Source: Candidatus Moraniibacteriota bacterium (GTDB lineage: Bacteria > Patescibacteriota > Minisyncoccia > Moranbacterales > UBA2206). Taken from it: a DNA stretch of 50,722 nt. The first letter of the stretch is position 1. Every line of letters begins with the position of its first letter. The DNA lies in contig JAUSNP010000004.1 of assembly GCA_030645735.1 (NCBI GenBank), forward strand, positions 76,739 through 127,460, given 5' to 3'. The translations under genes were made by a program, and so were the position numbers. Positions 3,668 through 46,612 of the stretch are shown piece after piece. The notes beneath the pieces were generated by a model. That model had not been told where the DNA came from. It saw only the letters and a list, made by a program, of their open reading frames with translations, and searched no databases.

Positions 3668-3695
3668 GTAGAGACGCATTGCAATGCGTCTCTAC
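3668..3695. repeat. Perfect 28-nt palindrome of the GTAGAGACG/CGTCTCTAC hairpin family
   Basis: The sequence is gtagagacgcattg|caatgcgtctctac, followed by tgcattttt. The same 9-nt outer stem recurs at 17631, 34276 and 34829. Confidence 0.85.
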
Positions 3696-4967: not shown

Positions 4968-5041
4968 GGAAGAGTGGCCGAGTCCTGCCTGCCGGCAGGC
5001 AGGGGTTGAAGGCGACAGTCGCTTGTTGCAAATTTAATATT
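4968..5041 (+). pseudogene. tRNA-Ser 5'-half remnant interrupted by a 20-nt palindrome
   Basis: GGAAGAGTGGCCGAGT[cctgcctgccggcaggcagg]GGTTGAAGGCGACAGTC matches the first ~40 nt of the adjacent tRNA-Ser(UGA). It has no matching anticodon-stem 3' strand, T-arm or acceptor 3' strand. Confidence 0.5.
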
Positions 5042-5128
5042 GGAAGAGTGCCCGAGTGGTTTAAGGGAACAGTCTTGAAAACTGTCGTGGGTTAAAGCTC
5101 ACCGAGAGTTCGAATCTCTCCTCTTCCT
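5042..5128 (+). tRNA. tRNA-Ser(UGA)
   Basis: The sequence is GGAAGAGTGCCCGAGTGGTTTAAGGGAACAGTCTTGAAAACTGTCGTGGGTTAAAGCTCACCGAGAGTTCGAATCTCTCCTCTTCCT. The anticodon stem is ACAGT/ACTGT and the loop is CTTGAAA. It has a long variable arm. Confidence 0.85.
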
Positions 5129-5133
5129 CAATG

Positions 5134-5164
5134 AAAAACAGCCCCATCATTAGGGGCTGTTTTT
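5134..5164. terminator. Bidirectional rho-independent terminator
   Basis: The sequence is aaaaacagcccc-atcatta-ggggctgttttt, lying between the tRNA-Ser gene and a convergent CDS. Confidence 0.7.
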
Positions 5165-5179
5165 ATATTCAAAAATTTT

Positions 5180-6004
5180 TTAGTATTTTTTATAATAATC
5201 TGCAAACAACTCCATCACCACCTGCGTATTTTTGCCAACCTTGCCATTCCCAACCTTTTTGCCATCAATCCGCACCACTGGCACGACATTTTTGTTGGCA
5301 CCGGTCAAGAAGACTTCGTCAGCCGCGCGGAATTCCTTTTCGGTCATTTCCCGCTCTTCAACTTTGAATTTTTTCTTGGCCAGTTTGACTACCAAATTTC
5401 TGGTGGTGCCCAACAGAACACCGTCTTTAGCCGTCACCAAAACATTGTTTTTGAAAATGAAAATGTTGCTCGTGGAATTTTCCAAAACTTTGCCCTCTTT
5501 GATATAGGTGATTTCCAAATCATCTTTGCGTTTCTTGATGTGCTGATTGCGAATCGCTTCTAAATAATTAGTAGTTTTGACTCTCGGCAGATGTCGTCCA
5601 AATTCCAAAGTCACCACGCCCACGCCATTTTCATAACAAACTTTGGGCAAAGCCACAAATTTTTCAATCAAAATGTAACACGTCGGTTTGCCTGGCAAAA
5701 AAGCATTGGCACTCACCCCACCGGTCAGCACGGTGCGGATGGTGGATTTGGCAAAACCATTGGCTTTCAGCAACTTTTTCAAAATTTCGGCAAATTCATT
5801 TTTGGAAAATGGCATGGGCAATTTCAACTCTTGCGCAAACTTTTTCAAACGCGCAAAGTGCTCATCAAACAAAAATGGTTTGCCGTTGCTAGTACACATC
5901 ACATCAAACACGCCATAGCCCCGCAAAGTCCCAATGTCATAGGGATTGGTTTTGATTTGATCAGGCTTACAAATTTTTCCATTGAAATACGCTAATTTAG
6001 CCAT
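5180..6004 (-). CDS. Class IV aminotransferase (branched-chain or D-amino-acid aminotransferase family)
   Basis: 274 aa. The family-typical C-terminal segment is EVFLTGANKNVVPVVRIDGKKVGNGKVG, and size and layout fit fold-type IV PLP enzymes. Confidence 0.75.
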   Translation of the reverse strand: MAKLAYFNGKICKPDQIKTNPYDIGTLRGYGVFDVMCTSNGKPFLFDEHFARLKKFAQELKLPMPFSKNEFAEILKKLLKANGFAKSTIRTVLTGGVSANAFLPGKPTCYILIEKFVALPKVCYENGVGVVTLEFGRHLPRVKTTNYLEAIRNQHIKKRKDDLEITYIKEGKVLENSTSNIFIFKNNVLVTAKDGVLLGTTRNLVVKLAKKKFKVEEREMTEKEFRAADEVFLTGANKNVVPVVRIDGKKVGNGKVGKNTQVVMELFADYYKKY

Positions 6005-6086
6005 ATAAATTCTATTAATACTTAGCTTCCATATTATATACCAGCTGCAACTAGATACAAAATACCAAATACTATATACTCAAGAT

Positions 6087-8351
6087 ATGTCAACTCTGCA
6101 AACCCAACTCAAAAACATCCCCAAAATCCTGCCGAAATATGCCAAGATTTTGGAAAAAATGGAACTCCACAGCGTGGAGGATCTTTTACTGAACTTTCCT
6201 TTCCGTTATGATGATTTTTCGCAGGCTTCTCCAATTTCCCCAGAATATATCAATCAAACAGTCACTATCGAAGGCATGGTCACCAAGAGCAAATTGGCGC
6301 GCGTTTTTCGACGCAAGATGACTATTGCCGAAATCACCGTCGAAGACTCTTCTGGCAATTCACTCAAAGCGGTGTGGTTCAATCAGCCATTCATTCTGGA
6401 AAGTTTGAAGGAAGGCACGCCAGTGCGTTTGAGCGGCAAGCTCACCTTGAAAGGCAAAGTCTTGCAAATGAGCAACCCAGCTTGGGAGCGCGCTGGTCGT
6501 GAAACCACCAACACGGGTTGCCTTGTGCCGGTCTACAACGAAACTCGCGGACTCACTTCCAAATGGTTGCGCTGGCAAATCAAACCGCTTTTGGCAATTG
6601 CCCAACAAATGGAAGATGTGGTGCCCTATGAAATTCGCCAACGCTTGAATCTATATGACATCTACACCGCCCTAACCCAGATTCACTTTCCCGACTCCAA
6701 AGAAAAACTTTTGCGCGCGCAAAAAAGATTCGCTTTTCAAGAAATGTTTTTGGTACAACTCAAAACTTTGCAAATCAAGTCGCTTTGGGAAGGCAATGCT
6801 TCTGTGCCAATCGCTTTTGATGAAAAATTGATTCAAAATTTTGTCAGTGGTCTGCCATTCAAATTGACCAACGCCCAACGCAAAGCTTCTTTTGAAATTC
6901 TCAAAGACCTGGAAAAACCCGCCCCCATGAATCGCCTGCTCAATGGGGATGTGGGAAGTGGCAAAACGATGGTAGCCGCCATCGCTTCCCTGCAAGCCAT
7001 GCAAGCTGGTTTTCAAGTGGTTATTATGGCACCGACGGAGGTTTTGGCGAAACAGCATTTTGAGAGTTTTAATAAAATTTTTGAGAAGTATGATTTTAAT
7101 ATTGCTTTGTTGACGAATTCGTATAAGTTAGTCAGCAGTCACCAGTCAACAGTCAACGGAAATGATAAGGTAGTCATCAGTCAATGGTCAACAGTCATTA
7201 AGAATGCTACGGCCGTCATCAGTCAACAGTCAACGGTCAACAACTGCAACGCCAAAGATGACAGATTACCGATGACCGATGACGTAATATTAAAACGCGA
7301 TGTTCTACTTAATAAAATACAATCTGGTGAAATAAATCTAGTCATTGGAACTCACGCCATCATCCAAAAAGATGTGGCCTTCAAAAATCTAGCGCTAATA
7401 ATTATTGACGAGCAACACCGCTTCGGCGTCGCGCAACGCGCTTTCCTCCAACAGGAAACCATGAGTGCCAATGACCCCGTAAAGTCCGCGACGGGCCACG
7501 GGGCAAGTGGCCAGAAGAAAACAATCCCCCATTTGCTGACCATGACGGCTACGCCTATCCCAAGAACTTTGGCCATCGCCATGTTTGGCAGTTTGGAACT
7601 TTCCATTCTGGATGAAATGCCAAAAAACCGCAAAGAAATTGTGACCAAAATCATTCCCGCCACCATTCGCCAAGAAGCCTATGATTTCATCCGCCAACAA
7701 GTGCACGAGGGTCGCCAAGTTTTTGTCATTTTGCCACTGGTAGAAGATTCAAAAGTTTTGACCGAAATCAAAGCCGCCACTTCAGAGCACCAAAGATTGT
7801 CCAGCGAAATTTTTCCTGATTTGCGTTTGGGACTTTTGCATGGCAAACTCAAATCCAAAGACAAAGAAGATGTGATGCAAAAATTCAAAGATCGCGAATT
7901 CGACATTTTGGTTTCCACTTCGGTGGTGGAAGTGGGCATCGACATTCCCAATGCCTCCGTGATTGTCATTGAAGACGCTGATCGTTTTGGATTGTCGCAA
8001 CTGCACCAATTCCGTGGACGCGTCGGTCGTGGCGAGCATCAATCCTATTGTTTTCTCTTCACCAATTCCAACACTGACAAAGCCACTGAAAGATTGCAAG
8101 CTATGGAAGACAGCAACGATGGTTTTGAAATTTCGCAAAAAGATTTGGAACTGCGTGGCCCAGGCCAATTCTTCGGCCTCGTCCAATCCGGCCTACCCGA
8201 CATTGCCATGGAGCATCTTTCAAATATAAAACTAATAAAATTCGCCCGCGCCGAAGCGCAAAATATTTTATCTTCCGACCCCGACCTAAAAAAGCACCCG
8301 CTCCTCGCGAGTGCCTTGCAAAAATTTCAAGAGAAGATTCATTTGGAATAG
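6087..8351 (+). CDS. recG: ATP-dependent DNA helicase RecG
   Basis: It has an N-terminal OB/wedge region, Walker A GDVGSGKT, DEQHRFG, TATPIPRTL and QLHQFRGRVGRG. It carries two atypical insertions; see the findings. Confidence 0.9.
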   Translation: MSTLQTQLKNIPKILPKYAKILEKMELHSVEDLLLNFPFRYDDFSQASPISPEYINQTVTIEGMVTKSKLARVFRRKMTIAEITVEDSSGNSLKAVWFNQPFILESLKEGTPVRLSGKLTLKGKVLQMSNPAWERAGRETTNTGCLVPVYNETRGLTSKWLRWQIKPLLAIAQQMEDVVPYEIRQRLNLYDIYTALTQIHFPDSKEKLLRAQKRFAFQEMFLVQLKTLQIKSLWEGNASVPIAFDEKLIQNFVSGLPFKLTNAQRKASFEILKDLEKPAPMNRLLNGDVGSGKTMVAAIASLQAMQAGFQVVIMAPTEVLAKQHFESFNKIFEKYDFNIALLTNSYKLVSSHQSTVNGNDKVVISQWSTVIKNATAVISQQSTVNNCNAKDDRLPMTDDVILKRDVLLNKIQSGEINLVIGTHAIIQKDVAFKNLALIIIDEQHRFGVAQRAFLQQETMSANDPVKSATGHGASGQKKTIPHLLTMTATPIPRTLAIAMFGSLELSILDEMPKNRKEIVTKIIPATIRQEAYDFIRQQVHEGRQVFVILPLVEDSKVLTEIKAATSEHQRLSSEIFPDLRLGLLHGKLKSKDKEDVMQKFKDREFDILVSTSVVEVGIDIPNASVIVIEDADRFGLSQLHQFRGRVGRGEHQSYCFLFTNSNTDKATERLQAMEDSNDGFEISQKDLELRGPGQFFGLVQSGLPDIAMEHLSNIKLIKFARAEAQNILSSDPDLKKHPLLASALQKFQEKIHLE
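7128..7292 (+). repeat. In-frame degenerate-word repeat insertion inside recG
   Basis: Words such as cagtcaacagtcaacgg, gtcatcagtcaa and gaccgatgaccgatgac encode LVSSHQSTVNGNDKVVISQWSTVIKNATAVISQQSTVNNCNAKDDRLPMTDDVILK. The segment lies between helicase motif Ia and the GTHA motif. Confidence 0.7.
7470..7514 (+). repeat. In-frame GC-rich hairpin insertion inside recG
   Basis: The DNA gaccccgtaaagtccgcgacgggccacggggcaagtggcc contains hairpins ccccgt/acgggg and ggccac/gtggcc. It encodes NDPVKSATGHGASGQ between the DEQH and TATPIPR motifs. Confidence 0.55.
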
Positions 8352-17630: not shown

Positions 17631-17659
17631 GTAGAGACGCCCCACTGGGGCGTCTCTAC
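17631..17659. repeat. GTAGAGACG/CGTCTCTAC hairpin in a terminator position between convergent genes
   Basis: The sequence is gtagagacgcccca-c-tggggcgtctctac, 6 nt after the methyltransferase stop. Confidence 0.8.
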
Positions 17660-20266: not shown

Positions 20267-20325
20267 GACGTGAAACTTAAAACGTGAAACGTAAAACGTT
20301 ATGCGATACACGTTACACGATATAC
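20267..20325. repeat. Degenerate-word repeat of the CGTGAAACG family
   Basis: The sequence is gacgtgaaacttaaaacgtgaaacgtaaaacgttatgcgatacacgttacacgatatac. It shares its words with the insertion inside uvrC at 35207-35314. Confidence 0.7.
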
Positions 20326-30021: not shown

Positions 30022-30120
30022 CATGAAACATGAAGCATGGAACATGCAACATGTAGCACGAGTCAAAAAAAACCTGCCAAAGCAGGTTGTTTCATGTTAT
30101 ATGTTTCGTGTTATATGACG
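30022..30120. repeat. Degenerate-word inverted repeat (CATGAAACATG type) enclosing a terminator hairpin
   Basis: The left arm is catgaaacatgaagcatggaacatgcaacatgtagcacg. The central hairpin is aacctgc-caaa-gcaggtt with an A/T run. The right arm is gtttcatgttatatgtttcgtgttatatgacg. Confidence 0.7.
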
Positions 30121-31140: not shown

Positions 31141-31350
31141 GGCGTTAGTGCGTTTCTAAATTCCAGATTATGAGCGTTAAAAAATTTCATACTAGCAATC
31201 CTTTAGCGTTCTTATTGGAATTTTAGCGAACAAGTTGAAAATTTGTCTTGGTATGCAGCTGTGCGGCCTTTTTCTTTTTTGCCACTTTTCTTTTGGGAAA
31301 AGAAAAATGGCGTACTGATTTCTTTGCTGCCAAAGAAAATGGACGCCCTG
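31141..31350 (+). repeat. Mosaic repeat element, copy X1 (~210 nt), abutting the uvrA-paralog stop
   Basis: Its parts recur at 46208-46378 (inverted, diverged) and at 46531-46612 (direct, 81 of 82 nt identical to 31233-31314). It contains hairpins ccacttttctttt-ggg-aaaagaaaaatgg (31281-31309) and tttctttg-ctgc-caaagaaa (31318-31337). Confidence 0.8.
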
Positions 31351-34200
31351 CTAAATATACTTCGCCGTCCAACTCTTCTTCACATGTTTCAGCTTATCTG
31401 GTGTTCCAGCATAAACAACCTCACCACCTTTGTCACCACCATCTGGTCCGATATCAATCACCCAGTCAGAATTGCGAATCACATCAACATTGTGCTCAAC
31501 CACCAGCACTGAATTGCCCTTATCCACCAGTGCATCTAATACACCTAGGAGTCTTTTTACATCATCAAAATGCAAACCGATGGTTGGTTCATCTAAAATA
31601 TACAAGGTTTTACCAGTTGATTTGCGTGAAAGTTCCGTGGCCAGCTTGATTCTTTGCGCTTCACCGCCGGAAAGATTGGTGGCGCTTTGACCGAGCTTCA
31701 AATAACCCAAACCGACTTGTTCCAAGGTGGAAAGCTTTTCTACAATCAAGGGTGATTTTTTGAAAAAGCGCAAAGCATAGGACACACTCATATCCAAAAC
31801 TTCAGCGATGTTCACACCTTGATACTCAATGTCCAGCGTCTTGGGATTATATCTTGTCCCACCACAAGATTCACATTTCACATACATATCCGGCAACAAG
31901 TGCATTTCAATCTTCTTGGTGCCATCTCCTTGGCAAACTTCGCATCGTCCACCCTTCATATTAAAACTAAAACGACTAGGGGTGTAGGCGCGATTTCTCG
32001 CTTCCTCAGTTGAGGCGAATAAATCCCGAATCAAAGAGAATACACCCGTATAGGTGGCGGCGTTTGATCTTGGCGTTCGCCCAATCGGTGCCTGATTGAT
32101 ACTAATGACCTTGTCCACATTATCTAGGCCTTTGATTTTCTTATGCGCCCCTGGAGTTTCTTTGCAATTGAAAAAATGTCTGGACAGCGCCTTAGCTAAA
32201 ATATCAGAAACTAGAGATGATTTACCAGATCCAGACACGCCCGTGATAGAAACAAACTTGCCTAGCGGGATTTCCACATCAATATTTTTCAGATTATGCT
32301 CCGTGGCGCCAATGATTTCGATTGATTTCTTGTTGCCCTTTCTATAAGTTTTCTTTTCTGACACCTTTTTCTTGCCTATCAAATATTGCGCCGTGGAAGT
32401 TTTTGAATTCAATAGTTTTTTGAAATCGCCTTGAAAAATAACTTCGCCACCTTCTTCGCCAGCGCCTGGCCCCATGTCAATAATCCAATCAGCCTTGCGG
32501 ATGATGTCTTCATCATGTTCGACCACAATCAAAGAATTGCCAGCTTCTTTCAAGAGTTGCATAGTATTGATCAATTTTTCTGTGTCGCGATTGTGCAGTC
32601 CAATGGACGGCTCATCTAAAACATAGGTGATGCCCATCAATTCTGAACCAATCTGAGTGGCCAATCTGATTCTTTGCGCTTCACCGCCAGAAATTGAATT
32701 AGCGCCACGAGAAATTGATAGATATTCCAAGCCAACATTGATCAGCGCCTCAGTTTTCAATTTCATTTCTTTTACTAACGGCGCGGCGATGTCTCGCCTT
32801 GTCCGATCAACTTTCAAATTTGTTTCCACGCTATTCAAAAACGCCATAAATTTTCCAAGATCCACACTCACCACATCATCAATGGACTTGTCATCAATCA
32901 TCACGGCTAAAAATTCATCTTTGAGTCTCTTGCCTTCGCAAGCTGGGCAAACTTTTTCCAACATGTATTTCTCCAAATCACTGCGAACATAGTCGGACGC
33001 CGCTTCTTGGTATTTTTTCTTGATCATTGGAATCACGCCCTCAAAAATCACCCGCACTTCTTTCATTCCGCCCATATCACCTTTTTGTTCAATCAAAATT
33101 TCCTTGCGCTCTGGGCCAAAGAAAATGATATCGATGGCTTCTTTAGATAGTTTTTTCACTGGCGCATCAATAGAAAAACCATATTCCTTGCCTAGCACTT
33201 CCAAAATGTTCATATAATTGCCTTGCCCGCCCAATCGGCCATTGGATTTGCTCCAAGGCAAAATTGCCCCTTCAGATAAAGAGAGATTTTTATTAGGCAT
33301 CACTAGGTCAATATCCACTTCTTTGGTTATGCCTAAACCAGAACAGTGATCGCAAGCCCCTTCCGGGCTATTGAAAGAAAAGTGTCTTGGAGTTATTTCC
33401 GAAATTCGCGTGTGACATTCATGACACACAAAGTCTTTGTTATAAAATCGGTCTTCCTCGCCAATGACCGCTACAATAATTGAGCCATTGCCAACCTTGA
33501 GACCTGTTTCAATTGAATCCACAATTCGCTCTGAATCAGGATTTTTGTGCTTCACCACAATCCGATCAATCACCACTTCAACAGCGCTCTCAAACTGATC
33601 GCTGGCAATTGCAATCGCCTCAGTCACCAACATGATTTTGCCATTGAACCGCACGCGTGCATAACCAATCTGGCTAATACTACGCAAAACCTCTTTAGAA
33701 TTTTTGCTTGTCTCTTTGATTTTGGCCAAAATTGCCACCTGAGTGTTTTCCGGAAAACTCAAAATGTCCTGCAACATTTCTTGGTTGCTTTTTCTCACCA
33801 TTCCCGTTCCGCATTTGGGACAATGGGGTGCGCCAATCTTGGCAAACAAAACACGCAAATAATCATAAATCTCCGTGAGTGTTCCCACAGTTGAACGCGG
33901 AGAACGACTCAGGCTTTTCTGATCAATCGAAATAGTCGGACTCAAGTTTTCAACCTTGTCTACATCCGGCTTAGCCCCCACGTCCAGAAACTGTCGTGCA
34001 TAGGATGACATGCCTTCTAGATATCTACGATTGCCTTCGGCATAAACCACATCAAAAGCCAAGGATGATTTCCCTGAGCCAGAAAGCCCCGTCACCACCA
34101 CCAATTGGTCTCGAGGGATATCAATATCTACATTTTTAAGGTTATTTACCTTAGCTCCACGAATTATGATCTTGTCTCGAACTTTAGAAGATTTATTCAT
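31351..34200 (-). CDS. uvrA: Excinuclease ABC subunit A, divergent full-length paralog
   Basis: 949 aa with [13 protein letters not shown], two ABC signature motifs LSGGEAQRI and all zinc modules (CPKC, CHEC..CDHC, CPAC, CEVC..CESC). The N-terminal consensus is more diverged than in the second copy. Confidence 0.88.
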
Positions 34201-34275
34201 GTGTATGTAAATATAGTAAGATTTAAACTCTAGTTAAACATTTTAGGGCATTTTCTTGGGTTTGTAAAGGACTAA

Positions 34276-34313
34276 GTAGAGACGAGTCCGCCAGCTGGCG
34301 GACTCGTCTCTAC
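34276..34313. repeat. Perfect 38-nt nested palindrome: GTAGAGACG outer stem enclosing CCGCCAGCTGGCGG
   Basis: The sequence is gtagagacgagtccgccag|ctggcggactcgtctctac, lying between the uvrC stop and the uvrA-paralog start. Confidence 0.85.
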
Positions 34314-34324
34314 CTGTGAAAAAA

Positions 34325-35737
34325 TCAAATAAATTCGCTTTTACGCACCTTACGATGATATGTTATCGCAAATCGATGCGCTTCATCCATAATAGTCTTG
34401 ATCAAATTCTTATCGTCTAAAATATTTTTAATTTCTTTTGAAAATTTAGTTATTGATAATTCATTGGATCCGCCAGCTGGCGGAGGAAATTGGAAATTGA
34501 GATTTTTACGAGTCTTGCCTTTTGCAACACCGACTATTGGTATAGCAAAACCCAATTTACTCAGAAGATCAGCTGCCATATTGACATGTCCAGCACCACC
34601 ATCTAGCAAAATCAAATCTGGTTGCGTCCAAGCATTGTTGAGTCGTCGCGACAAAACCTCTTGCATCATGGCCACATCATTGGCACCCTCGACAGTTTTG
34701 ATTTTGAATTTGCGATATTCTTTTTTGTTCGGCTCGCCGTTCTCAAAAACCACCATTGATCCCACAGCCTGTTGGCCAGAGATGTTTGAGATGTCATAGG
34801 CTTCGATTCGAAATTTATCTGTGCCCCCGTAGAGACGAGGCAATGCCTCGTCTCTACCGCTTGAAATTAAGGCAACATCTTGAATATGTTGAAGGGCAAA
34901 AATCTTGTTCCTCACCTCCGTCGCTTTCTCAAATTCTTCTTTCTTGGCCAATGCTGACATTTCTTTTTCCATTTTCTTCAACAAGCTTTTTTTCTTGCCC
35001 TCCAAAATCATCTGAATACCTCGAATATTTTTGGCATAATCCGCCTTGGAAATCGCCCCCGCATACGGCCCTGGGCAACGCCCCAATTGAAAATCCAGAC
35101 AACCTTTTTCCGTTTTATTTTTACTCGAATGAAACGGAAAAATCTTCCGTACAATCTTCAATGCGATTTCCATTTGTTTTTTGGAAGTGTATGGACCGAA
35201 CAATCGTGAAACGTGGATCGTGGATCGTGGATCACCTTGCTTTGCGTTCCACGTTTTGCGTTTTGCATTTTGCGTTTTGCGTTCCACGTTTTGCGTTCTA
35301 CGTTTTGCGTCTTCCAGATCTGTTTTTCTCACAATCATCACTTTCGGAAACTCCTCTTTTGTAATCACAAAATACGCATACGACTTGTCATCCTTGCCCA
35401 ACACATTATATTTCGGCTGATGCTTCTTGATCAAATTAGCTTCCAAAATCAACGCCTCCAAAACACTCTCCGTTTCTTGCACCTCAATGTCCGCCACTTG
35501 CGCAATCATCATCTCAATCGGCCTCAAAGAAATCCCTTCATTTCCTCTTCTCCCTTTGGGAGAAGGTGCCCGAAGGGCGGATGAGGGCAAAGCGGAGGCA
35601 AAATACGACCCGACCCGGCTCCTCAAACTCGTCGCCTTGCCCACATATATAATTTTGCCTTTCGCATCACGGAAAATATACACCCCCGGAACTTGAGGTA
35701 AATCCTTTACTTTTTCATTTATATTTGCTACTTTCAT
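34325..35737 (-). CDS. uvrC: Excinuclease ABC subunit C (no C-terminal helix-hairpin-helix domain; carries several repeat insertions)
   Basis: GIY-YIG motif GVYIFRDAKGKIIYVGKA..YN, UVR domain EEFEKATEVRNKIFALQHI, endonuclease-V-like core RIEAYDISNISG and DEAHRFAITYHRK. The ORF ends about 8 aa later. Confidence 0.85.
   Translation of the reverse strand: MKVANINEKVKDLPQVPGVYIFRDAKGKIIYVGKATSLRSRVGSYFASALPSSALRAPSPKGRRGNEGISLRPIEMMIAQVADIEVQETESVLEALILEANLIKKHQPKYNVLGKDDKSYAYFVITKEEFPKVMIVRKTDLEDAKRRTQNVERKTQNAKRKTWNAKQGDPRSTIHVSRLFGPYTSKKQMEIALKIVRKIFPFHSSKNKTEKGCLDFQLGRCPGPYAGAISKADYAKNIRGIQMILEGKKKSLLKKMEKEMSALAKKEEFEKATEVRNKIFALQHIQDVALISSGRDEALPRLYGGTDKFRIEAYDISNISGQQAVGSMVVFENGEPNKKEYRKFKIKTVEGANDVAMMQEVLSRRLNNAWTQPDLILLDGGAGHVNMAADLLSKLGFAIPIVGVAKGKTRKNLNFQFPPPAGGSNELSITKFSKEIKNILDDKNLIKTIMDEAHRFAITYHRKVRKSEFI
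34469..34483. repeat. CCGCCAGCTGGCGG palindrome inside uvrC (encodes PPAGG)
   Basis: tccgccagctggcgga has the same core as the loop of the 34276-34313 palindrome. Confidence 0.6.
34829..34858. repeat. GTAGAGACG/CGTCTCTAC hairpin inserted in-frame in uvrC (encodes GRDEALPRLY)
   Basis: The sequence is gtagagacgaggca-a-tgcctcgtctctac. It maps exactly to UvrC residues 294-303. Confidence 0.8.
35207..35314. repeat. CGTGAAACG-family word-repeat insertion, in-frame in uvrC
   Basis: cgtgaaacgtggatcgtggatcgtggatc ... gcgttccacgttttgcgttttgcattttgcgttttgcgttccacgttttgcgttctacgttttgcg encodes EDAKRRTQNVERKTQNAKRKTWNAKQGDPRSTIHVS (residues ~142-177). Confidence 0.75.
35528..35596. repeat. GGGAGAAGG/GCCCGAAGGGC hairpin element, in-frame in the uvrC GIY-YIG domain
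   Basis: cttctccc-tttg-ggagaag and gccc-gaa-gggc encode SALPSSALRAPSPKGRRGNEGIS (residues ~48-70). The segment lies between ..RVGSYF and the conserved E-x-x-L-I-x-x-x-x-P-x-YN segment. Confidence 0.7.
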
Positions 35738-35797
35738 AGTATTAGAATAAACTTATTCAATGTCCTTTTCACTAATATACTTCGAGGAGGTGCACCT

Positions 35798-36109
35798 ATG
35801 GGATTTATCAAAAAGATAGATATGGTAAGCTTTTTTCAAAAACTCGTAAACATTCTGGCTGGAACACCTGAGCAGGATGAAGTTAAAAAAATTATTCAGG
35901 AATTTGAATCTGGGTCATTCACTGCTCGAAATGAGTTTCTACCAAAAATAAATAAGCTCTTTAGAAACTATGACACCCTGAGTTTTTATCCTGATGACAT
36001 CCTCGCATTTAAGAGTCCTGAGGAACTCTATGACACCCTTCGCAGAAAAGCTCAACTGTTCAAGCAAGTTCAGGCACTTGAAGATGAGTGGCAATCCCTC
36101 ATTTCTTAA
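35798..36109 (+). CDS. Hypothetical 103-aa protein
   Basis: Strong Shine-Dalgarno GAGGAGG 6 nt before the ATG, with a terminator hairpin downstream. No motif recognised. Confidence 0.6.
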   Translation: MGFIKKIDMVSFFQKLVNILAGTPEQDEVKKIIQEFESGSFTARNEFLPKINKLFRNYDTLSFYPDDILAFKSPEELYDTLRRKAQLFKQVQALEDEWQSLIS

Positions 36110-36133
36110 ATGAACTAAATCACCCTTCTATCT

Positions 36134-36169
36134 AGGAGCTTTCCGCCACGCGGACAGCTCCTGTTTTTT
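36134..36169. terminator. Terminator hairpin between convergent genes
   Basis: The sequence is aggagct-ttccgccacgcggac-agctcct followed by gtttttt. Confidence 0.65.
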
Positions 36170-36212
36170 ATATTTTTAAAAATCAGTGGAATCATGTGCG
36201 CTCAGGTGCGAA

Positions 36213-39155
36213 TCAGTGGTTCAGATATTCCCTCAAATATTTTGCTGTATAACTTTCTTTGTGATATTGCACAATTTCTTCTGGTGGGCCAGTCACAATC
36301 ACGCGCCCGCCTTGATCGCCACCTTCTGGACCAAGATCAATGATCCAATCAGCCGTTTTGATCACGTCCATGTTATGCTCAATCACAATCACCGTGTTGC
36401 CTGCATCCACCAAGCGATTCAAAACCACTAGCAATTTTTTGATGTCATCAAAATGAAGTCCTGTGGTCGGTTCATCCAGGATATACAAAGTGTCACCCGT
36501 GGCTCGGCGAGATAATTCTGTGGCCAATTTGATGCGTTGCGCTTCACCGCCTGACAAAGTTGTGGCGGCTTGTCCCAAATGGATATAGCCCAAGCCAACA
36601 TCTTCCAACACCGCCAGCTTATCATAGATATCATGGAAACTTTCAAAAAAGTCTTTGGCTTCCGAAACGGTCATAGCCAAAACTTCGGCAATGTTTTTGT
36701 CCTTATATTTCACCTCAAGTGTTTCGCGATTGTACCGTTTGCTTTTGCACACATCACACGGCAAATAGACATCTGGCATAAATTGCATTTCAATCTTGAT
36801 GTAGCCCTCGCCTTGGCAATTGTCACAACGTCCACCTTTCACATTGAAAGAGAATCGCCCAGGACCAAAACCCTTGCTCTTGGAACCGCGTGTGGAAGCG
36901 AACAATTCACGAATCGGTGTGAACAAACCGGTGTACGTCGCCGGATTGGAACGCGGGGTGCGACCAATCGGCGACTGATCAATCATAATAATTTTGTTGA
37001 TATGTTGCACACCCAAAATTTCTGAATGCTTGCCAGCTTTTTCCAAAGAATGCATCAACTTGTTGGACAATGATTTATACAAAATATCTTCTACCAAGGA
37101 TGATTTGCCGGAACCCGACACCCCCGTCACCACCGTCAAAACTTTCAAAGGAAATTCCACTGTCACATTTTTCAAATTGTTTTCCCGCGCGCCCCGCACC
37201 ACCAGCCATTTCTTGTTTTTCACATTGCGCCGCACCGCTGGCACTTCAATTTTCAATTCTCCATTCAAATATTGCGCTGTCAAAGACTTCTTGTTTTTCA
37301 TCACTTCCTCTGGCGTGCCTTGCGCCACAATTTCGCCACCCAAGCGACCGGCTCCTGGACCAATATCCACCAAATAGTCAGCTTCACGCATCGTCTCTTC
37401 ATCATGTTCGATCACAATCAAAGTGTTGCCGATGTCGCGTAACTGCAAAAGTGTTTGTAGCAACTTAGTGTTGTCGCGCGCATGCAAACCAATCGATGGT
37501 TCATCTAGAATATACAAAACGCCCACCAATTGTGAACCGATTTGTGAAGCCAAGCGAATCCGTTGCGCTTCTCCACCCGCCAAAGTGGCGGCTGAGCGTG
37601 ACAAAGTCAAATAGCCCAAACCAACATTTTCCAAAAATCCCAAACGCGCCTGAATTTCTTTCAAGATGCGTCCGGCAATCAATTCTTCCGTCTTGTTGAT
37701 TTTCAAATCTTTGAAAAATTTCAGAGATTCCTCCACGCTCACATCTGACACGCCCGCAATATTTCTCTCTCCCACAGTCACCAACAAAACTTCCGGTTTA
37801 TAGCGTTTGCCTTTGCAAATTGAGCACGGATTTTGTGACATATATTTTTCGATATTGGCCCGCACTGCATCTGATTCAGTTTTGAAATAGCGGTCTTGCA
37901 AAAAGCCCACCACGCCCCGCCAGCTCATCGAAAAAGTCCAAGCTGTGCCAGTCTTGGCGCGAATGCGAATGGCCACTTCTTCTGCTTCTTCTTCCGAAAT
38001 CATGTCCGTGGCGTCTGACGCGCCATACAACAAGCAGTTCAGTTTGCGTTCTGGCAAATCGCGCAAACGCACATTGTCAGAAATATTGAAATGTTTGCAC
38101 ACTGACAACAGCACGCCGCCATAATAATTGTTTTTCTTGAAATTCCACGGCATGAGTCCGCCTTCAGCGATTGTCTTGCTCATGTCCGGCATCACCAACT
38201 CTGGATCGATTTCCTTCTTGGTGCCCAAGCCCTCACAAGCTGGACAGGCGCCATATGGCGAATTGAATGAAAACAATCTTGGCTCCAATGTCGGAAACTC
38301 AATCTCATGCACCGGACATGCCAATTTCTGATTGAAAATGAATTCTTCTTTTTTGTTCCCCCTCGCCCTTTGGGAGAGGGCCGGGGTGAGGGCTCTAACT
38401 CTCACCAATCCTTCCGCCAACTTCAACGCTCTCTCTACATCTTCAAAAATCCGTGACAAATTTTCATCTTGAATTTTCACCACATCAACTACAATATCAA
38501 TACTATGTTTTTTGTATCTTTCCAATTTGATATCCATCGTGCTGGCCAATTCGATTTTTTTCTCATTCACATAGGCCACTGAGAAACCACGCTTAAACAT
38601 CTCTTCTAGCAACGAGGAATATTCACCCTTTCTTTGACGCACCACTGGTGCGATGATTTCGATTTCTTGTCCTTCGCCCCCGCCTCGCGTCGACGAGTGG
38701 TCGTCTCCACGAGTCGAGGCGGGAATCCCAATGATCCGATCGACAATTTCATCCGTTGAAAGTTTGGTGATTTCTCGTCCGCATTCAGGACAATGCGGAA
38801 CGCCGATTTTGGCAAACAGCAAACGCAGATAGTCATGGATTTCCGTGACCGTTCCCACTGTTGAACGTGGATTCTGCGAAGAAGCTTTTTGGGAGATAGA
38901 AATGGCTGGTGACAGCCCTTCGATATAGTCCACATCTGGCTTGTCCATCTGCCCCAAAAACTGCCGCGCATAACTCGACAAACTTTCCAAATATCTTCGT
39001 TGCCCTTCGGCAAAAATTGTATCAAAAGCTAAGGTCGATTTGCCCGACCCTGAAATACCTGTAAAAACAATGAATTTGTCACGTGGAAGCTCCAAATCAA
39101 TGTTTTTCAGGTTATGTTCCCTTGCCCCTTTGATGATTATTTTATCCATATTCAA
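36213..39155 (-). CDS. uvrA: Excinuclease ABC subunit A (consensus-like copy)
   Basis: 980 aa. [58 protein letters not shown] is close to the canonical UvrA N-terminus. It has two LSGGEAQRI signature motifs and all zinc modules, and carries two insertions. Confidence 0.92.
38355..38396. repeat. GGGAGAGGG-type GC-rich element, in-frame in uvrA (encodes [14 protein letters not shown])
   Basis: The plus strand reads ccccctcgccctttgggagagggccggggtgagggc. This is strongly GC-rich against an AT-rich gene. Confidence 0.7.
38670..38723. repeat. GC-rich hairpin element, in-frame in uvrA (encodes [18 protein letters not shown])
   Basis: ccgcctcg ... cgaggcgg is an 8-bp outer stem, with inner gacga-gtgg-tcgtc. 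It maps to residues 145-162. Confidence 0.65.
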
Positions 39156-39240
39156 TGTTCTTAGTACGACTGATTATACTACGAAATAACATAAAAATCA
39201 ATCAAATAAAAACCGCTATTTTCTAGCAGTTTTTCATATT

Positions 39241-39311
39241 GTCATTCCCGTGGAAACGGGAATCTAGTATCCAAGCTCTGTGACTAGATTCCCGATCAGG
39301 TCGGGAATGAC
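39241..39311. repeat. Composite palindromic element GTCATTCCCG...CGGGAATGAC
   Basis: Two hairpins, attcccg-tggaa-acgggaat and attcccga-tcaggt-cgggaat, are bracketed by gtcat/atgac and ctagt/actag. Confidence 0.75.
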
Positions 39312-39316
39312 AATAC

Positions 39317-39523
39317 TTAATCTATACTGTTCTTAGCATGAATATAGATAAATAGAATAAACAAAGAAATCACACCCACAATCGCCAATGTACCAAAGGC
39401 ATTTTCAGAATCCAATTTACCCGCCAGCCATTCCATATACAGCGGGTAATATTTTTGAGCTAATTGCTCAATCTGAGTAGGTAAATTTTTTATAATTTCA
39501 ATCATATTGACATTATAGCACAA
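39317..39523 (-). CDS. Possible small membrane protein
   Basis: 68-aa ORF with one C-terminal TM helix (LAIVGVISLFILFIYI). No homology recognised and the start is uncertain. Confidence 0.3.
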   Translation of the reverse strand: MCYNVNMIEIIKNLPTQIEQLAQKYYPLYMEWLAGKLDSENAFGTLAIVGVISLFILFIYIHAKNSID

Positions 39524-39559
39524 TAAAAAAACTGCCTTAGTTAATAAAGCAGTTTTTTT
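39524..39559. terminator. Bidirectional terminator hairpin
   Basis: The sequence is aaaaaaactgc-cttagttaataa-agcagttttttt. Confidence 0.6.
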
Positions 39560-39580
39560 ATTATGCTAGATATCTATTTT

Positions 39581-40645
39581 TTAGTTCCCACAACTAGCTG
39601 CGCTAGCTGAGGCTGAGGCTGTACCTTCGCCAAAGCCTGCTGCCGGAGCAGTGGCTGACAATTTAGCAGTCTCACATTCTTTGGGTGCATTGTTGAAAGC
39701 ACCGCAGATAGCTTTCAATATACTAGCTGAATCTCGTCCAGATTGCGCAGTCACACCATTCACAACTAGTGTTGGTGATCCTTGCACGCCATATTTCACA
39801 TTATCTGCTTTATCTACGCCGAATGGAGGGAATTGTCCATTACTCCATTTGCTCTTGTCAGCAGCGTCGGCCTTCACATTAAATTGTGTATCAGCTTGTG
39901 CCACACAAGATTTGATAGCTCCAGCAGAAACTCCAGCTGAAGTCATACATGCGTCCGATGTACCTTCACCCTTCTTTAGAAAACAAGTTAGATAAGCTGA
40001 CAATCGAGCAGGTTGATTTTTTTGAATACAATATTGTCGCAAATTTTCATCGATTTCTTTGTCACCATGCATAGCATAATCTACAAATTTCAACTTGTAA
40101 TCAATTTTGCTTCCCAAAGCAGCTACTACTGGCAAAATTCCTTTTTCCATTTGTGTTCCATATGGACAATAGCTCATCACAAAAAGTTCTACGCTTGGTT
40201 TGTCATTTTTTGGAATTTCCACAGCTTCTGCTGGCGTTTGTGCATCGGCAGTTTTGTCAGCGACTTCAGTTTCCATGGCTTGTGGAAAAAACTTTTTACC
40301 ATCACGCGTCATATAAGTTGGAATCTCTTGTTCGCCAACTTTGATAGTGATTTTATATAAATCATTTTCTTCCACCGCGTCAGTTACCGTTGCTTGATTG
40401 TCCGGTGACAACAAGGTGCTGTTCACAAATTCCAAAACCTTAGTTTTGGCGCCTTCCAAGCCGATGTCAGCCTTTTTAGTTTTATAAAAATACCCACCCA
40501 CTGCCAACAAAATCACCAACAAAACTACGCCGGCAACAATATGTTTTTTCTTATCACTACAATCACAATTGCATTTGAAGAACTTTTTTGCAGCCGATTC
40601 CGTCACCGGTGCCACCACAGATTCTTCTGTTTTTATTTCGTCCAT
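39581..40645 (-). CDS. Membrane-anchored thioredoxin-fold (DsbA-like) protein
   Basis: A Cys-rich N-terminus (CNCDCS) and one TM helix, then FVMSYCPYG (a CxxC position reading CPYG) and the cis-Pro-loop-like GVQGSPTLVVNG. Confidence 0.55.
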   Translation of the reverse strand: MDEIKTEESVVAPVTESAAKKFFKCNCDCSDKKKHIVAGVVLLVILLAVGGYFYKTKKADIGLEGAKTKVLEFVNSTLLSPDNQATVTDAVEENDLYKITIKVGEQEIPTYMTRDGKKFFPQAMETEVADKTADAQTPAEAVEIPKNDKPSVELFVMSYCPYGTQMEKGILPVVAALGSKIDYKLKFVDYAMHGDKEIDENLRQYCIQKNQPARLSAYLTCFLKKGEGTSDACMTSAGVSAGAIKSCVAQADTQFNVKADAADKSKWSNGQFPPFGVDKADNVKYGVQGSPTLVVNGVTAQSGRDSASILKAICGAFNNAPKECETAKLSATAPAAGFGEGTASASASAASCGN

Positions 40646-40725
40646 TATTTTTTATCCAACCTGATTTCAACTAACTGAACTCAGATCAAATTTTTACTTT
40701 AGTTACTTACCTATTATACAGGCCA

Positions 40726-40754
40726 TTGACTTTTCCGTCAAAATACGCTACTAT
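40726..40754 (+). promoter_or_regulatory. Sigma70-like promoter: TTGACT, 17-nt spacer, TACTAT
   Basis: TTGACT at 40726-40731, a 17-nt spacer, then TACTAT at 40749-40754, about 55 nt upstream of the ATG at 40811. Confidence 0.45.
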
Positions 40755-40810
40755 TCAGCGTTAGGATAGAACATTTACAATAACCTCAAAAAAAAATATA
40801 AGGAGCTTCA

Positions 40811-41560
40811 ATGCACAAAGGAAAGAGGGATTTCGAAAAAGATGTACAGGAATTTAGGGATCACATACAGAAACTTCTTAGAACTCACAAATTATCGAAG
40901 ATCTATTCGTTTGTAGTTGGAATCATTGATCCAGAAAATTTTCTAGTGGAAATTTCAATCCCCACAGAAATCCTGCGCTTTCTCGAAAAAAGAACTGATA
41001 TATCTTTTGCAGAGAGTCAATTGCAAGCTATCGGAGAAAAACAAAATGCTTTTCATAAGACAGAAGGCAAGGTTTTTCTGCTGAAAGTTGCCGATGGTAA
41101 GATTATCGTGCAAGGCAATTTCGGCCTGCCTTGCCTATCCTATGCATTGGCTGACTTCTTCAGTAAGCGCAAGGACTTTGTGCGTTCGATGCACATAGAA
41201 CTAGAGGAGATGCTTCGAGAAAAAATGCCGCTTCTCTTATCTAAAAAAAGAACTTTGAGCACCAGCTGTCAAAAAGGCGGGACTTGCAAAGTAATTATCC
41301 GCCTCAATCCAATCGTTATGAGCTTGGATGGGCACTCGCAGCACAACTTAACCGAAAAGTCTGAACGCATCTGTAATGTCTTCCAGTATCCCATTGAATC
41401 TCATTTAAAAATAGATTCTGGAAATGGCGTCTATGTTGGTAAACTAACAATTGTTTCGACAATCACTGTGACCGGAAAAAATCCGGCAGAAATAGTTTCC
41501 AAAATTCATGATGAGCTATACAAGAGGCCAGACTTCAAATATCTGACCACTAAAATTTAA
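40811..41560 (+). CDS. Hypothetical 249-aa protein
   Basis: Shine-Dalgarno AAGGAG 5 nt before the ATG, its own promoter candidate and a downstream hairpin. No motif recognised. Confidence 0.6.
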   Translation: MHKGKRDFEKDVQEFRDHIQKLLRTHKLSKIYSFVVGIIDPENFLVEISIPTEILRFLEKRTDISFAESQLQAIGEKQNAFHKTEGKVFLLKVADGKIIVQGNFGLPCLSYALADFFSKRKDFVRSMHIELEEMLREKMPLLLSKKRTLSTSCQKGGTCKVIIRLNPIVMSLDGHSQHNLTEKSERICNVFQYPIESHLKIDSGNGVYVGKLTIVSTITVTGKNPAEIVSKIHDELYKRPDFKYLTTKI

Positions 41561-41648
41561 CCGAGGAGGTTTTATTAAAACAACCCCAACAAAAAAAGCA
41601 TCAACCGCCGCGACGGTTTGGTGCTTTTTATATTTTTCAAATATTTTT

Positions 41649-43607
41649 TTATTTCAACTGCAACTTTCGCAACTGCAAAATCTCATCGCGAATGATGGCT
41701 GCTTTTTCAAATTGCAAGGCTTTGGAAGCTGCTTTCATTTCTTTTTCTTTTTGCCGGATATAACCCTGCACATCTTCCAAGGATTCCAACTCGGAGAAAT
41801 CACGCGTGAATTCTGGCTTGATTTCATGATCCACAATTGATTCAATGTTTTTCTTGATGGTTTGTGGTGTGATGTGATGTTTTTTGTTATACGCTGTTTG
41901 CACTGCGCGTCGGCGATTGGTTTCATCAATCGCCCGCTTCATGGAACCGGTGATTTTGTCCGCATACAAAATGACGCGTCCGGAAACATTGCGCGCTGCC
42001 CGCCCAATAGTTTGAATCAATGATGTTTCACTGCGCAAGAAGCCTTCTTTGTCAGCATCCAAAATTGCCACCAAGGAAACTTCTGGCAAATCCAAGCCTT
42101 CACGCAAAAGATTGACACCCACCAAAACATCAAATTCTCCGCGTCGCAAATTTTCCAAAATCCGAATGCGATCCAGCGTGTCCACATCAGAATGCAGATA
42201 TTCCGTCTTGATGCTATTTTCTTTCAAAAATTCTGACAAATCTTCCGCCATCTTTTTCGTCAGCGTGGTAATCAAAACTCGCTCCTGCTTGGCCACCACT
42301 TTTTCAATCTCCGGCAAAATGTCTTTGACTTGACCCTTAGCTGGCTTGATTACAATTTCTGGATCAATGAGACCGGTGGGTCGAATAATTTGTTCCAACA
42401 CCTGCGCTGAATTTTTCTTTTCATATTCCGCTGGTGTAGCCGAAGTAAAAATCATCTGATTGATTTTCTTTTCAAATTCAACAAACTTCAAGGGTCGATT
42501 ATCATAAGCGCTCGGCAAGCGAAAACCATTTTCCACCAAAGCCGTCTTGCGCGAAAAATCACCATTGAACATCCCGCCAATTTGGGGAATGGTCACATGT
42601 GATTCATCCACCACCATCAAAAAGTCCTTCGGAAAATAGTCGATCAAAGTGTCTGGCGCCTCACCAGCATTTCTGCCAGTCAAATAGCGGGAATAATTTT
42701 CAATCCCGTTGCAATAGCCAATTTCACGCATCATCTCAATGTCTTGGCGTGTGCGACGACTCAATCTTTCGGCTTCCAAAAGTTTGCCGGCCTTTTTCAA
42801 GAGTGCCACTTGTTTTTCCAAATCCTTTTCAATCGAGCTTTGCGCTTCTTGCATGATTGGTTCCGGCACCACAAAATGCTTGGCCGGGAAAATCATCACT
42901 TGTTCCAACTTGCCCAACTCGCTACCTGTCAAAAAATCATATTCAAAAATCTTTTTCACTTTGGAATCGTGCAATTCAATGCGCGTCACAATCTCGCGTG
43001 CCGGCGACATGATCTCCACCGTCTCACCCGTCATGCGAAACTTGGAACGCCCCAACATATCGGTGCGCAGATATTGCATCTCGATCAACTCACGAGAAAT
43101 TTCATCACGTGAAATTTTTTGTCCCACTTTGATTTCCATCGCGATGTCGCGATAATATTCTGGTGAACCCAAGCCATAAATACACGACACTGAGGCCACA
43201 ATAATCACGTCCGTGCGTGACAACAAGGCCGCCGTGGATGCATGGCGCAATCGATCAATCTCTTCGTTGATTTGCGATTCCTTTTCAATATAGGTGTCAC
43301 TGGATGCGATATAAGCTTCCGGCTGATAATAGTCATAATAAGACACGAAATATTCCACCGCGTTTTTCGGAAAAAAAGTGCGAAACTCTTGCGCCAATTG
43401 GGCGGCCAAAGTTTTGTTGGGTGCAATGACTAAGGTCGGCTTTTGCACCTGCTCAATCACGTTGGCAATCGTGAAAGTCTTGCCCGAGCCAGTCACACCC
43501 AAAAGCGTCTGAAATTTCTGCCCAGCTTTGAGACCTTTGACCAATCCCGCAATCGCCTGAGGTTGGTCGCCAGATGGCACATATTTTGAGTTAATCTTGA
43601 ATTTCAT
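41649..43607 (-). CDS. uvrB: Excinuclease ABC subunit B
   Basis: Walker A GVTGSGKT, VDESH, helicase C-terminal motifs, and the C-terminal UVR domain FEKAAIIRDEILQLRK. Confidence 0.92.
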   Translation of the reverse strand: MKFKINSKYVPSGDQPQAIAGLVKGLKAGQKFQTLLGVTGSGKTFTIANVIEQVQKPTLVIAPNKTLAAQLAQEFRTFFPKNAVEYFVSYYDYYQPEAYIASSDTYIEKESQINEEIDRLRHASTAALLSRTDVIIVASVSCIYGLGSPEYYRDIAMEIKVGQKISRDEISRELIEMQYLRTDMLGRSKFRMTGETVEIMSPAREIVTRIELHDSKVKKIFEYDFLTGSELGKLEQVMIFPAKHFVVPEPIMQEAQSSIEKDLEKQVALLKKAGKLLEAERLSRRTRQDIEMMREIGYCNGIENYSRYLTGRNAGEAPDTLIDYFPKDFLMVVDESHVTIPQIGGMFNGDFSRKTALVENGFRLPSAYDNRPLKFVEFEKKINQMIFTSATPAEYEKKNSAQVLEQIIRPTGLIDPEIVIKPAKGQVKDILPEIEKVVAKQERVLITTLTKKMAEDLSEFLKENSIKTEYLHSDVDTLDRIRILENLRRGEFDVLVGVNLLREGLDLPEVSLVAILDADKEGFLRSETSLIQTIGRAARNVSGRVILYADKITGSMKRAIDETNRRRAVQTAYNKKHHITPQTIKKNIESIVDHEIKPEFTRDFSELESLEDVQGYIRQKEKEMKAASKALQFEKAAIIRDEILQLRKLQLK

Positions 43608-46530: not shown

Positions 46531-46612
46531 GTTGAAAATTTGTCTTGGTATGTAGCTGTGCGGCCTTTTTCTTTTTTGCCACTTTTCTTTTGGGAAAAGA
46601 AAAATGGCGTAC
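46531..46612 (+). repeat. Mosaic repeat element, partial copy X3 (81 of 82 nt identical to 31233-31314)
   Basis: gttgaaaatttgtcttggtatgTagctgtgcggcctttttcttttttgccacttttcttttgggaaaagaaaaatggcgtac differs from X1 at a single position. An inverted fragment, ataccaagatacaaattgaaac, lies at 46450-46471. Confidence 0.85.

Follow-up and report, generated by a model that had tools for sequence, protein, structure and literature searches.

Perfect GTAG/CTAC hairpins in Moranbacteria DNA and their probable kinship with RAYT-linked palindromes

Four palindromes in a Moranbacteria window

The DNA considered here, called the window throughout, is a stretch of 50.7 kb (50,722 nucleotides) from a member of Candidatus Moranbacteria, a group within the Patescibacteria or candidate phyla radiation (CPR), and was recovered from a groundwater metagenome. 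It contains eight tRNA genes, genes for TsaD and Hsp20, a type IV pilus cluster, a two-component system, uvrB, two uvrA paralogues and uvrC. Scattered among these genes are four short hairpins with a common outer stem, and the subject of this report is the nature of these hairpins, their relatives in other genomes, and their probable kinship with the repetitive extragenic palindromes (REPs) that are associated with REP-associated tyrosine transposases (RAYTs, also called TnpA_REP).

A search of the window for the pattern GTAGAGACG-N(4-34)-CGTCTCTAC returned exactly four matches (Table 1), with interiors of 10-20 nt, and the same search of 100 dinucleotide-preserving shuffles of the window returned none. 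The 9-mer GTAGAGACG occurs eight times when both strands are counted, and all eight occurrences fall within the four elements. Every copy is a perfect palindrome, 28-38 bp long with arms of 14-19 nt (complementary flanking bases lengthen the arms of copy 1 to 15 nt and those of copy 2 to 17 nt), and among palindromes that contain G+C these are the longest perfect ones in the window. Read 5' to 3', all four run from GTAG to CTAC; the GTAG foot pairs with the CTAC, and each element stands singly rather than as a doublet. Folded as single-stranded DNA, the copies are predicted to form 13-17 pairs closed by loops of 3-4 nt, at -13.9 to -21.5 kcal/mol (z = -6.9 to -9.9). The four interiors are all different, and that of copy 3 contains a nested palindrome. 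The first-pass annotation of this sequence had described just such a set, with a shared outer stem and differing self-complementary interiors, and its coordinates are correct for all but the last end, copy 4 stopping at 34857 (29 bp) and not at 34858. An Rfam scan of the window at the gathering score matched only the eight tRNAs and none of the hairpins.

Table 1. Positions of the four hairpins, the small palindromes related to copy 3, and the adjoining repair genes
Feature	Position	Strand	Description
copy 1	3668..3695	.	GTAGAGACG-CATTG/CAATG-CGTCTCTAC, 28 bp (30 bp with A/T flanks); intergenic
copy 2	17631..17659	.	GTAGAGACG-CCCCA-C-TGGGG-CGTCTCTAC, 29 bp (35 bp with AAT/ATT flanks); intergenic
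copy 3	34276..34313	.	GTAGAGACG-A-GTCCGCCAGCTGGCGGAC-T-CGTCTCTAC, 38 bp; uvrC-uvrA spacer
copy 4	34829..34857	.	GTAGAGACG-AGGCA-A-TGCCT-CGTCTCTAC, 29 bp; in frame within uvrC
inner palindromic module GTCCGCCAGCTGGCGGAC	34286..34303	.	nested in copy 3, whose interior is 20 nt, A-GTCCGCCAGCTGGCGGAC-T
solo mini-palindrome CCGCCAGCTGGCGG	34470..34483	.	inside uvrC, read PPAGG
uvrC	34325..35737	-	470 aa; GIY-YIG, UVR and RNase H-like endonuclease domains
uvrA	31351..34200	-	downstream neighbour of copy 3

Three of the four copies are intergenic within the 50.7 kb. Copy 1 lies between the minus-strand genes for tRNA-Arg(GCG) and tRNA-Ser(GCU), 63 bp upstream of the latter; copy 2 is flanked by two convergent genes, of which the one for a methyltransferase stops at 17625 and the other, small and hypothetical, at 17679; and copy 3 is found between the stop of uvrC (34325) and the start of uvrA (34200), directly upstream, on the minus strand, of a promoter-like TTTACA-17-TAAAAT. 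Copy 4 is translated as GRDEALPRLYG within a variable linker of UvrC, just ahead of the C-terminal endonuclease domain. The gene map bears out the contexts proposed at first pass, namely a terminator position, a site upstream of a tRNA, the uvrC-uvrA spacer and a site inside uvrC. A run of T residues follows only copy 2 (ATTTTTT, minus strand), copies 1, 3 and 4 being without one. Intrinsic (Rho-independent) terminators were rejected as a class for the family, the combination of a G+C-rich hairpin with a T-run being found only at copy 2.

Relatives in other genomes and the RAYT connection

The family most likely extends beyond the window within this genome, since near-identical copy-2 hairpins lie in other AT-rich contexts on two further contigs from the source run, 15.4 and 16.4 kb long, whose depths, 12.9 and 13.7, match the 13.8 of this genome. 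Extra depth and loose ends in run X1 likewise mark other copies of the copy-4 sequence. The first-pass annotation had allowed that the four might prove to be the only copies, and so a chance occurrence; the equal-depth contigs speak otherwise.

One genome per species was scanned for the same pattern, and at least 120 genome loci, spread over about a dozen phyla and including some in finished genomes of cultured strains, proved to have this 9-bp foot and stem. The hosts named in the record titles include Bacteroidota, Cyanobacteria (many of them Nostocales), Chloroflexota, Spirochaetota, Geobacter, Desulfuromonas, Omnitrophota, Acidobacteriota, Ignavibacteriales, Rhodothermales/Balneolia, Zixibacteria, Planctomycetota, Methylococcales, Binatia and one metagenome-assembled genome (MAG) of Patescibacteria. 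At least 119 viral contigs (IMG/VR; L206-L324) carry the same double-foot hairpin, some in multiple copies and some in forms of 38-40 nt, and their loops are more often asymmetric than those from cellular genomes. A tblastn search with six RAYT-like proteins detected no RAYT-like gene in 1.05 Mb of these viral loci; phages may act as carriers, or may simply have been colonised. The sharing of the 9-bp foot and stem by about a dozen phyla and by viral contigs points to horizontal spread of the system.

When the open reading frames (ORFs) of the 120 listed loci were clustered, members of one family were seen to accompany the hairpin in six of the loci, and a further such locus came from tblastn. 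At these 7 of 120 loci the hairpin lies within about 300 bp of, or inside, a RAYT-like Y1/HUH gene, which for one low-copy family is estimated to be at least tens of times above random placement. Hairpins, or slightly degenerate copies, stand on both sides of the gene in three loci, the layout known as a REPtron: two on each side in L022, one on each side in L055, and in L108 one upstream and five downstream, the latter in tandem with a 57-bp period. Locus L084 has one hairpin directly upstream of the RAYT-like ORF and one inside it, and in L020 and L116 the hairpin is inside the ORF. The stretches concerned in the Bacteroidota RAYT loci are 5333-5580 (L108), 863-1600 (L084) and 4928-5518 (L116), and hairpins within RAYT ORFs are accompanied by short tandem peptide repeats (HDSHDS... 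and SNEQSNEQ... in L084).

The proteins in question are 177-219 aa long, carry MPNHLH or MPNHFH, WQ and NYIxNNP (YIIDNP in L020), and have as their sole NCBIfam match NF047646, 'REP-associated tyrosine transposase' (E = 1e-15 to 1e-18). The peptide VETHGRASL, which is the translation of GTAGAGACGCACGGCCGTGCGTCTCTAC, is present in 94 of the 120 best homologues of the L108 protein, placing the hairpin in frame within the RAYT itself, and several of these homologues bear the Joint Genome Institute (JGI) name 'REP element-mobilizing transposase RayT'. A search with a Bacteroidales RAYT protein returned close homologues only, and the few with organism names were all Bacteroidales. These associations support the REP-like reading given at first pass, for the identical hairpin flanks or sits within RAYT-like Y1/HUH genes elsewhere. 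The window itself is another matter: neither tblastn with the six RAYT-like proteins nor Pfam scans covering nearly all of its larger ORFs found a RAYT or other Y1 gene there, in agreement with the first-pass remark that none was visible. A literature search for RAYTs in CPR bacteria found no relevant paper among those listed, and a literal search of a collection of papers for GTAGAGACG yielded primer sequences only.

Properties of the interiors were tabulated for 127 elements with interiors of 8-13 nt, taken from the genome loci listed (at least 120). The interior is 10 or 11 nt long in 121 of the 127 and begins with C or T in 121, and each interior pair is complementary in 84-100% of the elements. 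The four central bases could not pair in a hairpin, yet they share in the symmetry in 39 of the 54 unique 10-nt interiors, against 1/16 expected (p = 4e-35). Because the palindromy includes these unpairable bases, the symmetry must be a property of duplex DNA and not only of the folded strand, and both strands carry the same element. Enrichment of T at position -1 and A at position +1 extends the palindrome further, and no direct repeats or target-site duplications were found flanking the 127 elements. The suggestion that these might be miniature inverted-repeat transposable elements (MITEs) was rejected on this ground, with palindrome-extending T/A flanks in place of target-site duplications.

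Judged from sequence comparison, the differing interiors are mostly distinct subfamilies and not covariation that arose in place, and some of them reappear without any difference in genomes that are unrelated. A Parcubacteria contig has the copy-1 28-mer unchanged inside uvrC (L124, 10832-10859), an Omnitrophota MAG (L019) has the copy-4 29-mer, and a copy-2-like interior, CCCCG-T-CGGGG, is present in a Patescibacteria MAG (L088). The earlier argument that compensatory variation shows the hairpin to be maintained survives only in part; most interiors are separate subfamilies with the symmetry of duplex DNA, while one true compensatory change is seen when the window is compared with L125 (below). 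The presence of four different perfect interiors suggests several young or actively maintained subfamilies rather than one recent burst.

The modular nesting recognised at first pass is clear, the 14-nt core of the inner module being found both inside copy 3 and alone at a second site. The simplest reading of the long interior of copy 3 would be that a REP has come to hold a second small palindrome, GTCCGCCAGCTGGCGGAC, in its middle. In L126 (894-923) this 18-mer lies within another outer palindrome, with a stem unlike that of copy 3. Its 14-nt core, CCGCCAGCTGGCGG, occupies 34288-34301 within copy 3, and the solo version, read PPAGG, appears as a 4-residue (12-nt) indel relative to several UvrC homologues; the core appears at other positions in the UvrC proteins P0004, P0012 and P0047.

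Palindromes in uvrC and its spacer across Moranbacteria

Alignment of UvrC proteins reveals several hypervariable linkers, and members of the hairpin family turn up in one of these in more than one relative. P0055 (65% identity) has RDEAVPRLYGG, encoded by GTAGAGACGAGGCAGTGCCTCGTCTCTAt in L123, which matches copy 4 in site and reading frame. The same linker contains VETHCNASL in P0020, which is the copy-1 sequence read in the other open frame (L124), and VETQNLTSL in P0031. The element can be read in two of the three frames, giving VET...SL or RD...VST/RLY, and the third frame encounters the TAG stop within the foot.

The spacer between uvrC and uvrA provides a direct comparison of presence and absence. 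A double-foot hairpin occurs at the same place in the window and in L125 (P0005, 75% identity). Beside the conserved promoter-like block (TTTACAAAC...TAAAAT) no palindrome is present in L124 or L128, and in L126 the site is filled by unrelated sequence of about 140 nt. The right boundary of the spacer hairpin is exact, ...CTAC being followed at once by TTAG(T/C)CCTTTACAAACCC. The L125 version, GTAGAGCCG-AGGCAGTGCCT-CGGTTCTAC, differs from that of the window by one compensatory A:T to C:G change, one G:T pair and a different interior.

The gene uvrC in the window is host to copy 4, the solo mini-palindrome, a hairpin of the form CCTTCTCCC..GGGAGAAG and arrays of heptamer repeats. It belongs to an excision-repair cluster (31351-43607) comprising uvrA, uvrC, the second uvrA paralogue (36213-39155) and uvrB (41649-43607), in an order that is conserved in L123-L125. 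The UvrC protein is short (470 aa) and has no match to the C-terminal helix-hairpin-helix domain, as is also true of its Moranbacteria homologues. At 35545-35590, in the part of uvrC that encodes the N-terminal portion, is the inserted hairpin CCTTCTCCC-AAA-GGGAGAAG, which gives the peptide ...PSPKGRRG...; in the source metagenome its words reach a depth of about 500 and those of the flanks about 10, which marks it as a very abundant repeat. Relatives of it reside in uvrC of many CPR loci, up to four of them in L190.

Another intergenic palindrome, the perfect 20-bp CCTGCCTGCCGGCAGGCAGG at 4984-5003, has 80% G+C and no GTAG foot. Inside uvrC of L124 (11200-11219) there is a version with one central change, and L195 has the exact 20-mer (1420-1443) immediately upstream of its uvrC; these matches define a second palindrome family that is shared between genomes and lacks the GTAG foot. 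Identical 31-nt AT-rich hairpins, GCCACTTTTCTTTT-N3-AAAAGAAAAATGGC, at 31281-31311 and 46578-46608 lie 40-80 bp downstream of minus-strand genes (uvrA and a PMT_2 glycosyltransferase gene), and are probably terminators or another small repeat.

Heptamer tandem repeats occur in frame in uvrC at 35203-35310 (TTTGCGT x10 and ATCGTGG x4), in a linker that is hypervariable across Moranbacteria. Repeats of AGTCAAC and GATGACC are likewise in frame at 7123-7283 inside a RecG-like gene (6087-8351), and further tandem heptamer arrays are located at 20268-20322, 30022-30117 and 6050-6080. The unit AGTCAAC is a rotation of CAACAGT, the unit of the cyanobacterial short tandemly repeated repetitive (STRR) sequences.

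Probable identity, proposed mobility and significance of the hairpins

The closest published counterpart is found among the REPs of TnpA_REP subclass 2.4, which corresponds to Bertels group 4. Proteins of this subclass have the motifs NH[IFV]H, WQ and YIxNNP and a median length of 194 aa, their hosts are Cyanobacteria, Bacteroidetes and various other phyla, and among their REPs are a 'double foot' type, bounded by GT[AG]G (5') and C[TC]AC (3'), and copies in frame within tnpAREP (Quentin, Siguier, Chandler, Fichant 2018, BMC Genomics 19:475, PMC6006769). The leucine found in place of [IFV] in the HuH motif of the hairpin-associated proteins is a small departure from this definition. The window hairpins share with the double-foot REPs the feet, a long and fully paired stem (7-20 nt in the definition of the class), a tiny loop (2-5 nt in that definition) and in-frame insertion into genes, the RAYT included, and GTAGAGACG...CGTCTCTAC itself flanks or sits within RAYT genes of this kind. 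They differ in that the host belongs to the very small-genome Patescibacteria/CPR, a group unmentioned in PMC6006769, and in that, unlike subclass 2.4 REPtrons, the 50.7-kb window shows four copies with four interiors, one nested, and no cognate RAYT.

A broader comparison is with the GTAG-tagged REP super-family, members of which have been described inside uvrA, uvrB, uvrC, recBCD and polymerase genes (Di Nocera, De Gregorio, Rocco 2013, BMC Genomics 14:522, PMC3733652). Common to that super-family and the window elements are the tag, sub-families with alternative complementary stem residues, modular self-complementary loops, a preference for sites downstream of genes or between convergent genes, and the use of uvr genes as hosts. 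In most of the published families the tag is unpaired at one end and inverted dimers are frequent, whereas in the window it is paired and each copy stands by itself. The main text of PMC3733652 does not contain the string GTAGAG. The E. coli REPs and bacterial interspersed mosaic elements (BIMEs) and the Pseudomonas REP doublets called REPINs (Bertels and Rainey 2011, PMC3116915) resemble the present family in being non-autonomous and mobilised in trans by a single-copy gene, although the E. coli REPs are imperfect and bulged and REPINs are doublets, unlike the single perfect palindromes of 28-38 bp in the window.

Two further kinds of repeat invite comparison. The small dispersed repeats (SDRs) of heterocyst-forming cyanobacteria, described by Elhai et al. 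in 2008, are reportedly 21-27 nt long with inverted ends, variable centres, nested insertions and accompanying heptamer tandem repeats, and are said to have been proposed to move through RNA. In size, ends and nesting they would be similar to the hairpins, and many of the hairpin loci found here are from Nostocales. A later paper restates SDRs as confined to Nostocaceae (PMC5861425). The Rickettsia palindromic elements (RPEs) are also palindromic repeats that lie in frame within protein-coding genes, including repair genes. Their length is about 100-150 bp. RPE-4 and RPE-6 correspond to CGTC-tagged REPs, a class without an associated transposase (PMC3733652).

Taken together, these comparisons make it probable that the four hairpins are double-foot GTAG REPs of a family cognate to RAYT/TnpA_REP subclass 2.4. 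The identification draws on the far-above-chance occurrence of the pattern, its presence at 120 or more loci, the RAYT adjacency at seven of them, the frequency of VETHGRASL in RAYT homologues, the published double-foot class and the precedent of GTAG REPs in uvrABC, and equally on the orthologous presence, absence and compensatory change in the spacer, the UvrC-linker members in other frames, and the further copies at equal depth. The window hairpins fit the double-foot class feature by feature, with the exception of a cognate gene, which is not seen in the part of this genome that the window covers; such a gene may lie elsewhere in the genome, may have been lost or may act from another replicon.

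The E. coli REP/BIME elements with their TnpA_REP furnish a mechanistic model, in which a Y1/HUH enzyme recognises a single-stranded hairpin plus GTAG, cuts and rejoins; TnpA_REP of E. coli cleaves and rejoins REPs, and Y1 enzymes act on single-stranded DNA, mainly the lagging-strand template. By analogy with this enzyme and with IS200/IS605, each strand of a REP of the present type would fold into the same hairpin when DNA is single-stranded, for example on the lagging-strand template. A RAYT could then recognise the hairpin and its GTAG foot, cut, and rejoin the strand, so that copies would be made or moved without target duplications, and a perfect palindrome would offer the same substrate on both strands. 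Selection would filter the resulting insertions, intergenic copies surviving and genic copies surviving only in flexible linkers and only in the two frames that lack the TAG stop. Individual copies may later be used by the host, copy 2 as a terminator for instance.

Several results weigh against assigning the hairpins to RAYT-linked REPs. The matches to NF047646 fall under the curated equivalog cut-off and the Pfam Y1_Tnp matches are borderline; tblastn found no RAYT in the window or, in a sample that is small, among other CPR loci totalling about 415 kb; each of the four copies has an interior of its own, whereas genome-amplified REP families usually share one sequence (as in L067); and no RAYT has had REP transposition directly demonstrated in vivo (PMC6006769). 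In addition, CPR uvrC genes also hold palindrome families that lack the GTAG foot (CCCCTCTCC..GGAGAGGGG, CCTGCCTGCCGGCAGGCAGG and GAAGGTTGAACCTTC), which may reflect a more general, foot-independent process that makes or inserts palindromes in these genomes.

Such a process is the core of the rival explanation that palindromes arise and spread in CPR bacteria without RAYTs, by template switching or snap-back synthesis that would create palindromes and make them perfect, by recombination with foreign or phage DNA, or by an RNA-mediated route of the kind that Elhai et al. are said to have proposed in 2008 for the cyanobacterial small dispersed repeats. It is favoured by the lack of a RAYT in any CPR sequence examined (the window and the 415 kb), by the many footless families that occupy the same UvrC linkers, by the continuation of palindromy through unpaired loop positions, by the heptamer tandem repeats that accompany the window elements as reported for the cyanobacterial ones, and by the 119 or more viral contigs that have the hairpin and no RAYT nearby. 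Yet the exact foot and stem are tied to RAYT genes elsewhere, the sampling took in no more than a small part of any one CPR genome, and a de novo process is not expected to remake the same 9-mer in many phyla; this explanation is unlikely. Less likely still is that the hairpins are not mobile DNA at all but elements selected for host functions, as terminators, stabilisers of mRNA 3' ends or operators for dimeric proteins. The intergenic location of three copies, the convergent position of copy 2 with its ATTTTTT, the abutment of copy 3 on the conserved promoter-like block upstream of uvrA, and a symmetry through the centre that would suit a dimeric DNA-binding protein all agree with such roles; they must be set against the T-run at a single copy, the translation of copy 4 within a coding region, the close relatives that retain the promoter block and lack the spacer copy, and the presence of the same sequence in about a dozen phyla and in viral contigs and beside RAYT-like genes.

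The stem also contains GAGACG/CGTCTC, a BsmBI/Esp3I-type recognition site, and the first-pass annotation had raised the idea that its conservation reflects a target of restriction-modification or methylation. Although the hexamer is present twice, inverted, in every copy, its frequency outside the four hairpins is at chance level (9 occurrences against 8.9 expected, neither avoided nor enriched), conservation reaches past it to the whole of GTAGAGACG, related CPR elements have GTAGGGAC or GTAGAGCCG stems without GAGACG, and scans of nearly all the larger ORFs of the window found no restriction-modification gene; the idea now looks very improbable. An origin by chance or as an assembly artefact is scarcely credible. 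Perfect palindromes do break de Bruijn graphs, and the Logan contigs of run X1 stop inside or at copies 3 and 4, but independent contigs overlap across the palindromes with zero differences, the uvrC reading frame is intact, the shuffled sequences gave no match, and the same elements are present in finished genomes of cultured strains such as Calothrix PCC 7716. One 38-bp Logan contig of the source run consists of the palindrome itself, and contigs end inside or at 34276-34313 and 34829-34857.

The way in which the hairpins persist in this host invites a bolder conjecture, which we regard as quite doubtful: that the REPs stay perfect and multiply in a RAYT-less CPR genome, either mobilised in trans (from a host bacterium, a phage or another replicon) or through RAYT-independent palindrome-making, with their repeated appearance in the same uvrC linkers of different Moranbacteria owed to a targeting tied to repair or replication and not just to tolerance of insertions.

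A puzzling hairpin family would now have its place in a described class, the double-foot GTAG REPs linked to RayT-type transposases, and that class would extend to a new host group, the Patescibacteria/CPR, whose genomes of about 1 Mb are usually viewed as streamlined. Palindromes of this sort fragment short-read (de Bruijn graph) assemblies of CPR genomes. More broadly, the family would offer a concrete case in which very small mobile palindromes reshape linkers in UvrC, an essential repair protein, across many CPR lineages, and the odd peptide inserts that result (VET...SL and RD...VST/RLY) should be recognised by annotators as derived from repeats.

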